Origin: an uncultured delta proteobacterium
GTDB lineage: Bacteria; Myxococcota_A; Polyangia; Polyangiales; Polyangiaceae
Reading direction: 5' to 3'
Length of the DNA: 64,000 bases
NCBI GenBank assembly: GCA_963782055.1
Contig: CAWAIF010000002.1
Coordinates: forward strand, 96,001 to 160,000
Shown: positions 44,738 through 52,655 of the stretch, piece after piece
Layout: each line of letters starts with the position of its first letter
How positions within the stretch are numbered: position 1 is the stretch's first letter
Position numbers and translations under genes: made by a program
Notes under the pieces: generated by a model
Told to the model about the DNA's origin: nothing
The model's database searches: none
What the model saw: only the letters and a program-made list of their open reading frames with translations

Positions 44738-44992
44738 ATGAAGATCGGAAAGACCCTCGCTGTGACGGCCGCTTCGGGACTGCTGCTGGGCCTCATGGCA
44801 GGCTGCGGTGGTGACAACGCTTCGAGCGGCGGCGCTGCGACCCCGTCGGGCGGCGACATGGCTGCTCCGGCGGACAGCTCTGGCGGCGGCGCGAAGGCGA
44901 GCTGCAGCGGCGCCGGCGGTGGCGCGGCTCCGGCCGACACTGGCAGCGCGGCTGGTGGCGAGGCGACCCCTCCCCCCGCTCCCGCTCAGTGA
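44738..44992 (+). CDS. Small Gly/Ala/Ser-rich lipoprotein, putative MNIO (DUF692) substrate
   Basis: SD GGAGA; lipobox LMAGC (Cys23); one other Cys in KASCSG (Cys56); directly upstream of DUF692. Confidence 0.75.
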   Translation: MKIGKTLAVTAASGLLLGLMAGCGGDNASSGGAATPSGGDMAAPADSSGGGAKASCSGAGGGAAPADTGSAAGGEATPPPAPAQ

Positions 44993-45051
44993 CCTGCTGA
45001 ACCCCCTGGCCGCGGTCGTCCTCTCGGACGGAGGCGGCGCGGGTGGGGCAA

Positions 45052-45094
45052 GGACGCCGCGGCCACCTTTCGGTGCCGCGGCGTTCGTGCTTTT
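45052..45094 (+). terminator. Intercistronic hairpin or weak terminator after the precursor gene
   Basis: Stem GGACGCCGCGGCCACC-TTTC-GGTGCCGCGGCGTTC followed by GTGCTTTT. Confidence 0.6.
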
Positions 45095-45108
45095 GTGACC
45101 AGACGTCC

Positions 45109-45966
45109 ATGGGTTTTCGCGACAAGCACGGCATCGTGGACCTGGGCGTCGGCGTCGGGTTCCGTCCCAAGCACGCGGCCGACGTCCTGGAGCGCGGCGG
45201 CTCGCCCGAGGTGGCCTGGTACGAGATCGTCAGCGAGAACTTCATGGGCTCCGGCGGCCGGCCGCGCGCCCAGCTGGAGCGGCTCCGCGCGGCTTACCCC
45301 GTCGTGCCGCACGGCGTGTCCCTCTCGGTGGGCTCGGTCGCCCCACTCGACCGCGAGTACCTGGAGCGTCTCGCCGCGCTCGTGCGGCACGTCGACCCGC
45401 CCTACTTCACCGACCACCTCTGCTTCTGCCGCGCGGGCGGCCTCGACCTGCACGATCTCTTGCCGCTGCCTCTCACCCCCGAGGCCGCCGCGCACACCGC
45501 GGCGCGGGCGCGGGAAGTCCAGGACAGGATCGGCAGACCCTTCGCGATCGAGAACGCCTCGAGCTACCTCGCCTACCGCGAGAGCTCCATGCCGGAGTGG
45601 GAGTTCCTCGCCGAGATCGCCGAGCGCGCCGACATCGGCATCCTGCTGGACGTGAACAACGTCTTCGTGACCGCGCACAACCTGGACTTCGATCCGGCCG
45701 CCTACATCGACGCGATCCCCGCCGACCGCGTGGTGCAGATCCACCTCGCCGGCCACACCGACAAGGGCAGCTACCTGCTCGACACCCACTCCGATCACGT
45801 GCGCGAGGAGGTGTGGGCCCTCTACGAGCGGGCGATCCGCCGCATCGGGCCGGTCAGCACCCTCATCGAGTGGGACGAGCGCATCCCCAGCTTCGACGTG
45901 CTCGCGCGAGAGGCCGCCCTCGCCGCCGAGCACCGCGCGAAGGCCCTCGCGGAGGCCGGGCGATGA
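45109..45966 (+). CDS. DUF692 multinuclear non-heme iron oxidase (MNIO; BufB/HvfB-like)
   Basis: GVGFRPKH, ENF, HGVSLS, TDHL, IEN, LLDVNN, IHLAGH, DTH and EWD motifs. Confidence 0.93.
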   Translation: MGFRDKHGIVDLGVGVGFRPKHAADVLERGGSPEVAWYEIVSENFMGSGGRPRAQLERLRAAYPVVPHGVSLSVGSVAPLDREYLERLAALVRHVDPPYFTDHLCFCRAGGLDLHDLLPLPLTPEAAAHTAARAREVQDRIGRPFAIENASSYLAYRESSMPEWEFLAEIAERADIGILLDVNNVFVTAHNLDFDPAAYIDAIPADRVVQIHLAGHTDKGSYLLDTHSDHVREEVWALYERAIRRIGPVSTLIEWDERIPSFDVLAREAALAAEHRAKALAEAGR

Positions 45967-46766
45967 GCCGCCTCGACGAGACGCAGCGCCTCTTCGCCGA
46001 GGCCCTCCTCCACCGCCAGACGCTCGCCGAGGATGGCGCGCTCTCCGCCCGCGCGGAGGCGACCGCCGCCGGCAGCTCGCGCATGACGCCCACCGAGCAG
46101 CTCGACGTCTACCGCGAGCAGTTCTGGCTGCGTCATGTCGCCTGCCTGGCGGAGGACTACCCCGTCGTCGAGGCGCTGGTCGGGAAGGCCCCCTTCGAGG
46201 ATCTGGTGGCGGCCTACCTCGACGCCCACCCCCCGCAGCGCTTCCTCATCCGCGATCTCGGCCAGGACCTCGCGTCCTTCCTGGCGCGCACACCGCCCTG
46301 GAAAGAGGACGCGCTGCTCACCGACGTCGCCCGGGTGGAGTGGGCGTTCGTGGACGCCTTCGACGCCCCCGACGCGCCGCCCCTCGACCCGGCCTCGATC
46401 GCCGGCATCGGCGAGGACGACTGGCCGCGGGCGCGGCTGGTGCTCCACCCGTCCTTGCAGCGGCTGCAGCTCCAGCACCCCGCGCACGAGCTGCGGGTCG
46501 CGCACCGGGCGGGCCAGCCCGTCGTGCGTCCCCGGCCCGCCCCGGCGGCCGTGGTGGTCTACCGCCGCGAGCTGGGCACCTACCAGGAGATCGTCGATCG
46601 CCGCGCGCTCGCGCTGCTCGACCTCCTCGCGGCGGGCGAGCGCCTCGGCGACGCCGGCGAGCGCGTCGCGGCCGAGAGCGGTGGCGGCGACGCGGTGGAG
46701 GCCAGCATCGGCGACTGGTTCGCCCGCTGGGCCGCCCTCGGGTGGATCAGCCGCGTCGAGGTCTGA
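45963..46766 (+). CDS. DUF2063 MNIO partner protein (BufC/HvfC-like)
   Basis: QLDVYREQF..L..DYPVV..LVG..F..LV..Y and DVARVEWA; ATGA overlap with DUF692. Confidence 0.85.
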   Translation: MSRLDETQRLFAEALLHRQTLAEDGALSARAEATAAGSSRMTPTEQLDVYREQFWLRHVACLAEDYPVVEALVGKAPFEDLVAAYLDAHPPQRFLIRDLGQDLASFLARTPPWKEDALLTDVARVEWAFVDAFDAPDAPPLDPASIAGIGEDDWPRARLVLHPSLQRLQLQHPAHELRVAHRAGQPVVRPRPAPAAVVVYRRELGTYQEIVDRRALALLDLLAAGERLGDAGERVAAESGGGDAVEASIGDWFARWAALGWISRVEV

Positions 46767-49689: not shown

Positions 49690-50058
49690 CTACTCTTCCC
49701 CGTCGTCCAAGCCGTGGCTGGATGTCGGAGCCCCGCCCAGCATGGACGGGACTCCTACGGGGGGAGCAGCCTTGGGAGCCGCTTTGGTGCCGCCGGTAGT
49801 ACGCCTGCCGGCGGCCCGGCCAGGGCCGGTCTTGGCCTTTGAAGCAGCCTTCTTTTTGGCAGGCTTCTTTTTGGCGGCCTTCTTTTTGGCAGGCTTCTTT
49901 TTAGCAGCCTTCTTTTTGGAGGCTTTTTTGGCACCCTTCTTCGCAGACTTCTTCTTGGCCGTGCGCTTGGCGGACTTCTTCTTCGCCGTCTTGCCAGCGG
50001 CCTTCTTGGTGGTCTTCGTCTTCTTGGGAGCCTTCTTCGCAGACTTCTTAGCAGCCAT
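49690..50058 (-). CDS. Lys/Ala-rich histone H1-like DNA-binding protein
   Basis: Repeated AKKK/PAKK motifs; SD GGAGGG; has its own promoter and terminator. Confidence 0.8.
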   Translation of the reverse strand: MAAKKSAKKAPKKTKTTKKAAGKTAKKKSAKRTAKKKSAKKGAKKASKKKAAKKKPAKKKAAKKKPAKKKAASKAKTGPGRAAGRRTTGGTKAAPKAAPPVGVPSMLGGAPTSSHGLDDGEE

Positions 50059-50093
50059 GGTGTCCCTCCAGGTTGGTGAGGTGATCTACATGA

Positions 50094-50122
50094 CCTATAT
50101 GGTCACCTACGTCAGGTGTCAA
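50094..50122 (-). promoter_or_regulatory. sigma70-type promoter of the histone-like gene
   Basis: Minus strand TTGACA-N17-TATAGG with an upstream A/T tract. Confidence 0.6.
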
Positions 50123-50397
50123 ACAAAAATCAGATCATCAACTTGATTTTTTTTTTCGGATAGTTCGTGTTTGACCAACACGAACAGGGCGGCCGGAGGT
50201 GGGGATCGCCGTTCGCGGCGGGGGGATTTGGGGGAGGCATCCGGTCGCCTCGAGGCCACGGCGCGAGGATGGAATGGGCGCGGGTTCTCGCGTGGCGCGC
50301 GCGTCGGGGGCGCGAGCGGCATGGAAGGGGAGAGGAGAGGAGAAGGGGAGAGCGGGGCGCGTGGGTGGTGGGTGGGGTGAGGGAGAGGGTGACCGGT

Positions 50398-50785
50398 CGC
50401 GAGTGGAAGAGGGAGCTCGAGCGAGCGGGAGAGGGAGCGCGGGGGCGAGCGCGGGCGCGGGGGCGGGAGTGGAGAGGGAGCGCGGGGGCGAGCGCGGGCG
50501 GGAGAGGGAGCGCGGGGGCGAGCGCGGGCGCGGGGGCGGGAGTGGAGAGGGAGCGCGGGGGCGAGTGCGGGCGAGAGGGAGAGGGAGCGCGGGCGCGGGG
50601 GCGGGAGTGGAAAAGGGAGCGCGGGGGCGAGCGCGGGCGCGAGAGTGGAGAGGGAGCGCGAGGGCGAGCGCGGGCGCGAGAATGGAGAGGGAGCGCGGGC
50701 GCGAGAGTGGAGAGGGAGCGCGATCGCGGGCGCGAGAGTGGAGAGGGAGCGCGATCGCGGGCGCGAGAGTGGAGAGGGAGAGGGG
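50398..50785. repeat. Purine/G-rich degenerate tandem array
   Basis: About 11-12 copies of core GAGAGGGAGCGCG joined by GGGGGC/GAGCGC/GGGCGC hexamers; two identical 31-mers at 50697-50758. Confidence 0.9.
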
Positions 50786-50913
50786 GTCGCTCGGGGGAGG
50801 GCATCGTCCCGCCGTGCTCGAAGTCCGCAAGGCCGGGCGGTGCTCGTGTCGCTCGCCTTCGTGGTCGGGTGAGCGCAGGCGCGAGGCCGTGACCGAAGGG
50901 CGCGAGCGACGCG

Positions 50914-51267
50914 TCACCGGGTGAGGCCGGTGAGCAGCGCCACGAGCCAATCCGCGATCCGCACGCACCGCTCCGCCGGAGCGGCGTCCGCCTCGCCGGT
51001 GGCCGCGGCGATCTCCACCGCCGCCACCGCCTCGACCGCCTCGCCCCGCGCGATGGCGAACGCCCGCGCCTTGTCCCGCCGCGTCACCCGTCCCGCGCCC
51101 TCCGTCGCGTTCAGGCACGCGCTCTTCGCGGCGCGCATCGCCTCGTCGCGCAGCTTCGCGTCGCGCACACCAGCCGCCCGCACCGCGACGAGCAGCTCCA
51201 CCGCGCCCCGAAAGGCCACCAGCTTGTGATGAGGAAGAGAGCGAGGGGTCGTGTCTTGGTCGGTCAT
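50914..51267 (-). CDS. Four-helix-bundle protein (23S rRNA IVP / TIGR02436, Avd-related fold)
   Basis: KLVAFRGAVEL..LRDEAMRAAKSACLNATEGAGR....KARAFAIARGEAVE matches the family pattern L.V...A..L / L.DQ..RAA.S...NIAEG.GR / F..IARGS..E. Confidence 0.85.
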   Translation of the reverse strand: MTDQDTTPRSLPHHKLVAFRGAVELLVAVRAAGVRDAKLRDEAMRAAKSACLNATEGAGRVTRRDKARAFAIARGEAVEAVAAVEIAAATGEADAAPAERCVRIADWLVALLTGLTR

Positions 51268-51385
51268 GCCCCCCATCGCGCGGCATGCGTGACAGCGCGA
51301 TCCGTCCCTCTCGCCCCACCCTCGCGCCAGCGCTGGCGTGCATGGTGCGCGCAAAGGCGTGACCGACCAAGACACGACCCCGCGC
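51241..51385. repeat. 30-bp inverted repeat (28/30; 22-bp perfect core) overlapping the four-helix gene start
   Basis: 51241-51270 GCGAGGGGTCGTGTCTTGGTCGGTCATGCC versus 51356-51385 GGCGTGACCGACCAAGACACGACCCCGCGC. Confidence 0.95.
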
Positions 51386-51429
51386 GCCCGCCCATCCCCA
51401 CGCGCGGCGAGCATGTCCCCCCGAGTTCA

Positions 51430-51540
51430 CCCCCCCCCGACCCCAACCCCAACCCCGACCCCGACCCCGACCCCGACCCCAACCCCGACCCGACCCCAAC
51501 CCCGACCCCGACCCCAACCCCGACCCCGACCCCGACCCGA
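51430..51540. repeat. C-rich hexamer microsatellite (CCCCGA/CCCCAA)n
   Basis: About 18 units read directly from the sequence. Confidence 0.95.
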
Positions 51541-51791
51541 GCCAAGTGACACCGAGCGCGGGGGAGAGTGTGACACCAAGAGAAAGCGCGGGAACATGGA
51601 CGCGCAAAATGCTCGAACTGGAATGCAAAGGAGTCGCTCGCGGTTCTTCCGCGCGACCAAGCCCGGGACGCCTTGACGCACGGCTACGGCGGCGGCTACC
51701 GTCCGCAACCGCTCGCGAGACGTAACCCAGCGCGGGCCGGCGGCGTCGCACGAACGTGTGCGCGCTTCTCGCGAAGCCAGGAGGTGCTCTT

Positions 51792-52655
51792 GTGATTGCG
51801 ATTGCGAAGACCATGAAGCTGGGCATCGTCGCCCTCACCACGGCGCTCGCGCTCAGTAGCGTGGGCTGCGGCTACTCCCAGGAGGAGATGGACGCGAAGA
51901 CCCACGAGGTCGAGCGTCTGACTGCGGAGCTGAAGACCGCCAACACCAAGATCTCGGACGACCAGAAGAAGTTCGCCGACGCCCTGGCCCAGCAGGCCAA
52001 GCTGCGCGACGACCTCAAGCGGGCCGGCATCGACCTCGAGGCGTCCAAGAGCAACGCCGAGAAGCTCGAGCAGGCCATGCGCGAGTACAAGCAGCGCGCC
52101 GACCAGCTCGCGGCGATCGAGGCGCGCTTCCGCGACCTCAAGACTCGGCTCGACAAGCTGAACAACGTCGGACTCAAGGTGGTCGTGCGCAACAACCGCA
52201 TGGTCATCCAGCTTCCGGGTGACGTGCTCTTCGACTCGGGCAAGGATCAGCTCAAGAAGGGCGGCAAGGACGTGCTGCTACAGGTGGCCGACGTCATCCG
52301 CAACGACTCGACCCTCAACGCCCGCACCTTCCAGGTGGCCGGCCACACCGACAACGCGAAGTACCCGCACAACGGGCCCTTCCACGACAACTGGGGCCTC
52401 TCCCTCGCCCGCGCGCGTCAGGTCCTCCTCTTCCTGACCGCCCCGGTGGGCGACCCGAAGGCCAAGGACCCGAAGAAGCACGGCGGCGGCGGGCTCGACC
52501 CGAAGCACTGGTCGGCTTCCGGCTACGGGGACACCGACCCGCAGGCGGGCACCATGGAGAAGCAGACCAAGGACGAGATGAACAAGAACCGCCGCGTGGA
52601 GCTCGTCCTCGAGCCGAACGTGGAGGAGATGCTGAACCTCAGCACCATCAAGTGA
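51792..52655 (+). CDS. OmpA/MotB-family peptidoglycan-binding lipoprotein with coiled coil
   Basis: SD GGAGG before GTG; SVGC lipobox; VLFDSG, VAGHTDN, NWGLSLARA and NRRVE. Confidence 0.9.
   Translation: MIAIAKTMKLGIVALTTALALSSVGCGYSQEEMDAKTHEVERLTAELKTANTKISDDQKKFADALAQQAKLRDDLKRAGIDLEASKSNAEKLEQAMREYKQRADQLAAIEARFRDLKTRLDKLNNVGLKVVVRNNRMVIQLPGDVLFDSGKDQLKKGGKDVLLQVADVIRNDSTLNARTFQVAGHTDNAKYPHNGPFHDNWGLSLARARQVLLFLTAPVGDPKAKDPKKHGGGGLDPKHWSASGYGDTDPQAGTMEKQTKDEMNKNRRVELVLEPNVEEMLNLSTIK

Follow-up and report, generated by a model that had tools for sequence, protein, structure and literature searches.

The 64,000-nt window (the whole stretch of DNA analyzed) comes from a 7.6-Mb genome with 72% GC and contains, between two divergent genes, an inserted interval of 1,488 bp (50185..51672, unstranded). 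The interval is bounded by a conserved host block ending at 50184, on the side of a histone-like gene, and by the -35 box of an OmpA-family gene at 51673. It opens with a G-rich left flank (50185..50420, unstranded) that has no clear counterpart in the rest of the genome. Next come a purine-rich hexamer array serving a type-A unit on its 5' side (50421..50784, + strand) and a truncated type-A 5' leader (50785..50870, +; leader-copy identity 79-94%) that retains only the left hairpin arm, the type-A gene itself being deleted. The 3' tail of a type-B gene, common to the other two type-B copies (50871..50913, -), then leads into an intact type-B four-helix-bundle gene of the IVP/S23p family (50914..51267, -), encoding 117 aa with a net charge of +3. 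A conserved two-tier hairpin forms the type-B leader, with its full structure on the + strand, antisense to the gene (51241..51385). Beyond it lie a GGGGTC-type hexamer array, the 5' array of the type-B unit (51435..51538, -), and an array-junction motif, after which the type-A array briefly resumes (51539..51577, +). We found no match to Rfam families or rRNA within the window. The flanking histone-like, lysine-rich gene (49690-50184) has an upstream block that is strongly conserved across its family, and in four relatives (L021-L023 and L025) this gene is split into two short ORFs. Elsewhere in the window, at 44793-46766, a short Cys-containing ORF and a gene for an MbnB/TglH/ChrH-family enzyme (PF05114, E 3.5e-103) are joined by a partner ORF further downstream, and the three likely make up a RiPP-type cluster.

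To our knowledge, two structures have been solved for the IVP/S23p family and no function is known. The assignment of the 117-aa ORF (50914-51267, -) to this family, made in the first-pass annotation, was borne out by both curated models, with hidden Markov model scores of 37.5 bits for TIGR02436 (cut-off, 24) and 35.5 bits for PF05635 (cut-off, 33.8). Many homologs align from Met1; those that are named are mostly from Myxococcota, Polyangiaceae among them. The predicted structure of the type-B protein (pLDDT 95) superimposes on Xcc0516 (2GSC) with a TM score of 0.85, and its likeness to four-helix bundles (Xcc0516, 2GSC; BT_0352, 2RLD) reaches Z 15.2 at an rmsd of 1.5, with a profile E value of 1e-28. 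Given its resemblance to pentamers of solved structure, the protein would be predicted to form a homopentamer. Against the diversity-generating retroelement (DGR) protein Avd (4DWL), the model gave Z 11.1 and an rmsd of 2.1 over 98 residues, at a sequence identity of 5%; unrelated helical bundles also reach a Z of about 11.

Comparison with other copies in the same genome indicated that the window's copy has lost a partner. Positions 50785-50870 (+) match the first half of a type-A leader, with 97% identity over 38 nt to the pair at C3:2.534 Mb, whereas 50873-50916 match the type-B 3' tail. Relative to the two intact A/B pairs, the locus lacks 704-729 bp, a stretch that takes in the type-A gene in full. 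The G-rich array therefore served the lost partner on its 5' side, and the hairpin next to the stop codon (50845..50913, +), which is specific to this locus and crosses the deletion junction, unites two unrelated parts: its left arm is the leader of the other element and its right arm the 3' tail of the type-B gene. The pairing proposed earlier for this hairpin does exist (50845-50856 versus 50902-50913, 11/12 positions, with the wobble on the + strand only), but it is a chimera rather than the hairpin of any one element, and we ruled it out as a feature of the family. Likewise, the proposal that the ORF and its flanking structures are one unit held insofar as the gene is part of a mobile-like unit, but the G-rich array and the stop hairpin's left arm come from a second element that faces the other way and has lost its gene. 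Judged by sequence comparison, what survives here is the residue of a deletion within a tail-to-tail pair of four-helix-bundle genes. A gene-free half-leader with arrays is also present at C3:4.157 Mb, so such decay recurs.

The family is repeated in this genome and patchy among relatives. We detected 19 TIGR02436 matches, or 24 with remnants included; three of the copies, the window's among them, are type B, and the remainder fall into type A or A'. In each type-A copy inspected the parts come in the same order, a purine-rich hexamer array, a conserved hairpin leader, and then the gene. Both of the other type-B genes stand tail to tail with a type-A gene, and the genome holds 5 intact convergent pairs in all. 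Among relatives, the family was present in 20/30, with 1 to 38 copies each. Convergent pairs were seen at 10/12 loci fetched from relative G006 and at 6/7 from relative G026, sets that were partly chosen for looking paired, with the stop ends overlapping by 11-19 or 4 nt. In a set of type-B homolog loci unselected for pairing (49 found, of which 2 near contig ends were left out), a convergent partner scoring >40 bits was found at 19/47. In a quick tree, these partners were drawn from several clades, one of which mirrors its type-B mates. As a separate observation, at C3:2531900-2533400 the type-B gene is split near its ninth codon by an insert of ~1.5 kb that is bounded by short inverted sequences and carries a transposase-like ORF.

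Tandem arrays had been described on both sides of the ORF, and they are present at 50421-50784 and 51435-51538. They had further been taken as inverted copies of related hexamers that could fold back on each other and loop out the ORF, so that an RNA might be excised as from an rRNA intervening sequence (IVS). This part of the first-pass annotation was not supported. The left array consists mainly of GAGCGC/GAGGGA/CGCGGG-type units, with just 8 occurrences of GGGGGC; perfect complementarity between the two arrays runs to 5 bp at most; and the energy of the array-array duplex is no better than that of base-shuffled controls, whether as RNA or DNA and on either strand. Minimum free energy (MFE) folds of the whole locus do pair the arrays loosely, at 67-86 of 104 bases, because one is G-rich and the other C-rich. 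Inverted arrays also occur at a few loci, including 2/8 solo loci, and the gene family is found in stem-bounded IVSs (PMC4990558). Among assembled contigs from sequencing runs, none spans the element. Nevertheless, the left array is part of the deleted partner unit, and the end arrays are direct in most homologs (20/22 pairs, 5/8 solo loci, and 18/22 type-B loci with both arrays). With pairing at the level of shuffled sequence and a locus that sits between divergent genes, in a window lacking rRNA and Rfam families, we consider excision by array fold-back very improbable.

The arrays are nonetheless closely tied to the gene family, contrary to the possibility that they are equally common at unrelated loci. 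In the window's genome, 21/31 strong hexamer arrays are found no more than 800 bp away from a family gene, in neighborhoods that together cover 0.5% of the genome, and an upstream array accompanies 32/47 type-B homolog loci, compared with 25/2000 random windows. The 10-mer at the array junction of 51539..51577 recurs in the intact pair of C3:3.70 Mb, where it occupies the opposite end, a form of terminal redundancy. We know of no accepted origin for intergenic 6- to 7-mer arrays. Two candidate origins were rejected on inspection: products of DGR-like A-to-N mutagenesis, plausible in a few arrays, since variable positions are not restricted to A, and coding dipeptide repeats, since the variation is not synonymous. 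At two further sites (C3:2575176-2575417 and C3:3738220-3738560), two array types alternate upstream of type-A' genes, and in one of them the start of the leader is duplicated, which suggests either terminal redundancy or that one insertion nested at the base of the hairpin of another. Arrays of the type-A hexamer class that are orphaned, gene-free and in several cases arranged as inverted pairs, were noted at C3:924900-925400, 1468300-1469150, 3186560-3187150, and 6480180-6480480; they are likely remnants.

We then compared the interval with the corresponding sites in relatives. The site is empty in 6/6 same-genus genomes, where the host blocks stand 10-22 bp apart rather than 1,488 bp. In metagenomes, 70 loci carried the upstream host motif, none of them with a match to the family; 49 extended as far as the OmpA-family gene, and 49/49 of these were empty (some loci are redundant). 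Reciprocally, 13/39 cassette loci of relatives had adjacent flanks in the window's genome, and 13/13 of these sites were empty, with a shorter gap in 12/13; one relative's cassette site corresponds here to a 4-nt gap between convergent stop codons. No array exists at the empty sites with which to recombine. No target duplication is visible, the empty alleles being those of other species. Copies group by genome in a quick tree, and in seven groups dN/dS was 0.07-0.29 at pS 0.08-0.40. Many broken copies, frameshifted or truncated, lie beside those under selection, a pattern from which we infer birth and death of an element that needs its own protein in cis. Since the copies have diverged to pS values of up to 0.4, movement must be slow or old.

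These data bear on whether dedicated transposition need be invoked at all. The genes might instead form an autoregulated family, with the hairpin as operator or translation block, that is disseminated through horizontal transfer and through recombination or slippage at the arrays and is retained for being useful or addictive. In favor of this are purifying selection, a tandem duplication of identical proteins between direct arrays (C3:6.974-6.976 Mb), the orphan arrays, and the position of the hairpin, which covers or abuts the start codon. Most matched type-A leaders, in the window's genome and in relatives, also carry on the antisense strand an outward, -35/-10-like pattern (TTG-NNN, a 16-nt spacer, and xAxxxT; in the window at about 50800-50830, -), with a host-type TACxxT box in two of them. 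However, the empty sites offer no array for recombination, the testable orthologous sites are unshared (13/13 empty), and phage contigs and plasmids queried with the window protein gave no match. An mRNA leader would also not be expected to show the antisense and DNA-loop bias described below. We therefore judge this alternative distinctly unlikely.

The hairpin over the start codon shows strong covariation. The 30-bp inverted repeat reported there is real: its arms (51241-51270 and 51356-51385; 30 nt) are 93% complementary, and folded as DNA on the + strand, it reached z = -8.9, with 0/200 shuffles as good. The outer stem of the type-B leader spans the start codon and the first 9 codons. Across 15 leaders, 27/47 pairs of the two-tier stem covary, a level reached in 0/500 shuffles, and the stem is 90% paired compared with 30-41% in slid controls; the upstream arm follows changes in the first codons. 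Array and hairpin are both retained in homologs. An Rfam search returned just 5 matches, all sub-threshold, in five loci.

Several observations favor the antisense strand as the one that folds, as a weak hint from the + strand of the window had suggested. On the sense (mRNA) strand, the type-B stem contains 4 G-T versus 23 A-C oppositions, and the wobbles therefore sit on the antisense strand; in the window's type-B leader, the whole structure forms on the + strand only. Among 129 leaders, cGNAg triloops numbered 117 on the antisense strand versus 14 on the sense strand (39 versus 11 after dereplication), against a background of 0.25 per kb per strand. In the same leaders, GNRA tetraloops showed no strand bias (9 versus 8) and cUUCGg loops were absent. 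The cGNAg signal comes mostly from one genus; among 20 genomes with any such loop, antisense was ahead in 14 and sense in 4, and the predicted fold of the window's own type-B leader has no loop of this type. Other measures were less one-sided. The type-A stem has a near-invariant T-G on the sense strand, with G-T and A-C about equal in its inner stem, and antisense folded better in just 41/63 leaders, with RNA and DNA parameters alike. A strand-neutral stem finder gave mismatch counts of 64 G-T versus 93 A-C and 30 A-G versus 93 C-T, a supporting tally, the finder being permissive (114/250 random windows pass the same score). Mini-hairpins of the cGNAg type are far more stable in DNA than in RNA and mark single-stranded DNA (ssDNA) origins and the N4 promoter (PMC13037366); at DGR targets, too, there is a DNA hairpin whose loop is constrained (PMC3240598).

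No transposase or reverse transcriptase (RT) is linked to the cassette, and candidate mobilizing enzymes were also sought in whole genomes. The window's genome (G000, 97% complete) gave 0 matches to PF01797 (Y1 HUH), and tblastn with 12 Y1 proteins from relatives found no match in it at E 0.05. Y1/RAYT was not found in G000 or G026, and neither Y2 nor RT in G005 (98% complete, 8 copies); no single one of Y1, Y2, and RT was found in all six copy-rich genomes checked, which are metagenome-assembled genomes (MAGs), in which absence is not proof. RT matches in the window's genome numbered 13, and three that were tested are of the group II intron type; there was no RT match on contig C2. As candidates for a linked RT we considered, and rejected, three matches 4-7 kb from family genes: two that were scanned are group II-type, and one weak match is an unrelated, defense-island-like RT. 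Further enzymes were noted in passing. Eight RT copies with identical scores occupy eight C3 sites (L080-L087), and one that was scanned is of the group II intron type. At L129:5370-10503, a helicase-like ORF comes after a divergent RT-like one of 554 aa, an arrangement with the look of a defense island. A divergent Y1/RAYT-like family is abundant in G001, G004, G005, and G006 (L179-L190), with 31 matches in G001 and 15 in G006; some of its genes lie beside the same hexamer arrays, and one adjoins a cassette.

SINEs and LINEs have tails in which short tandem repeats come after a folded 3' end. By analogy, the cassette could be retro-mobile, as an RNA with such a folded end and short repeats that is bound by an Avd-like pentamer and copied in trans by a group II intron RT, the arrays arising by reiterative copying. 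The fold shared with Avd (Z 11.1) and the presence of RT matches of group II type in the genome are compatible with this route. The antisense G-U bias would suit RNA too, and cDNA would also be antisense ssDNA. Avd, an RT cofactor and RNA binder, is the only functionally characterized relative of the fold (10.1101/2023.10.23.563531). Yet the triloops are of the DNA type rather than GNRA or UUCG, the 8-copy genome G005 yielded no RT, the cassette has no linked RT, the arrays vary at bases other than adenine as well, and the Z score to Avd falls within the range of unrelated helical bundles. Retro-mobility thus appears unlikely.

We favor instead, with a probability of roughly 0.4, the reading that the locus is a decayed copy of a multi-copy two-gene cassette that moves as folded ssDNA, its own protein binding the hairpins and an unlinked enzyme cutting and joining. 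The anatomy of the cassette, its copy number, the empty sites, lineage-specific expansion, purifying selection, hairpin covariation, the antisense folding bias, and the loss of the partner are established; the steps of movement are proposed. The cassette would pass through an ssDNA intermediate, possibly a circle with the array as its junction, which would yield direct terminal arrays and terminal redundancy. A circle that opens inside the array is consistent with the direct orientation of the end arrays and with the junction motif, which two copies carry at opposite ends. The outward pattern in type-A leaders could then be a promoter driving the partner gene across the circle junction. The cassette's own protein is predicted to bind the leader hairpins in cis, and a trans-acting enzyme of the host or of another mobile element would likely cut and join. 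By analogy to IS10 and IS200, the start-covering stem may block translation of the gene on read-through transcripts from the host. Each strand of a pair would hold one of the genes in sense orientation and, at its 3' side, the folded end of the other unit, which would explain why convergent pairs recur. The window's copy, with a single gene and a single complete leader left, has probably lost its mobility, and the intact pairs at C3:3.70 Mb and in G006 and G026 are better objects of study. The covarying hairpin is a defined candidate ligand, with a named strand and a DNA-versus-RNA prediction, and movement of a marked cassette could expose an unknown transposition route.

More speculatively, and in our view somewhat doubtful, the cassette could represent a new class of mobile element free of catalytic genes, in which two convergent Avd-like genes are carried on strands that each end in a DNA mini-hairpin and a hexamer array. 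Such an element would move as single-stranded or circular DNA and seed the intergenic arrays of its hosts, with the ORFs of rRNA IVSs and the Avd of DGRs as offshoots. The cassette would also suggest an origin for the DGR accessory protein. The initial suggestion of a mobile or RNA-based element outside rRNA and without an RT was upheld in part: the cassette is mobile-like, lies outside rRNA, and has no linked RT, but an IVS-like, looped-out single cassette is not supported.

Comparison with known systems places the cassette between several of them. REP/REPIN-RAYT and IS200/IS605 HUH elements are intergenic, hairpin-ended, and strand-biased and often lie just behind stop codons. The cassette resembles them in all these respects, and in a likely ssDNA step, but it has a conserved non-catalytic gene pair instead of an HUH transposase, and its ends are hexamer arrays. 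Compared with insertion sequences and MITEs, its ends are direct arrays, and no duplication is visible against empty alleles from other species. S23p/IVP ORFs are known from 23S rRNA IVSs of Coxiella and Leptospira (PMC4990558), and the family also occurs in rRNA inserts of CPR bacteria (10.1101/2024.02.27.582315). With the 23S rRNA IVS (PMC4990558), the cassette shares the protein family, the character of a patchy, horizontally acquired selfish insert, and long stems near the ORF. Unlike it, the cassette lies outside rRNA in about 20 dispersed copies, no terminal stem or complementary termini enclose the ORF, and it has a 5'-leader hairpin, two facing genes, and direct hexamer arrays. DGRs (PMC3240598; 10.1101/2023.10.23.563531) share with it the four-helix fold of Avd and GC-rich DNA hairpins with constrained purine loops, the DGR target hairpin having a GRNA loop (PMC3240598). 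In contrast to DGRs, however, the cassette has no linked RT and no adenine-specific variation, its protein is 5% identical to Avd, and no template/variable repeat pair was found within 49800-52200. By the defining tests for each, the element is not an rRNA IVS, a DGR, or of RAYT/IS200 type, and its protein is of a known family. In the open-access literature searched, we found no description of such cassettes, and PMC5758913 and PMC8700078 contributed nothing further. Abundant intergenic 6- to 7-mer arrays, sometimes in inverted pairs, have been described for TAACTGA (PMC4679880) and GGGAATC (PMC4692102), in main texts from which four-helix-bundle and IVS terms are absent. Unlike those arrays, 21/31 here adjoin four-helix-bundle genes, and the cassette thereby links the IVP/S23p family to the intergenic 6- to 7-mer arrays.
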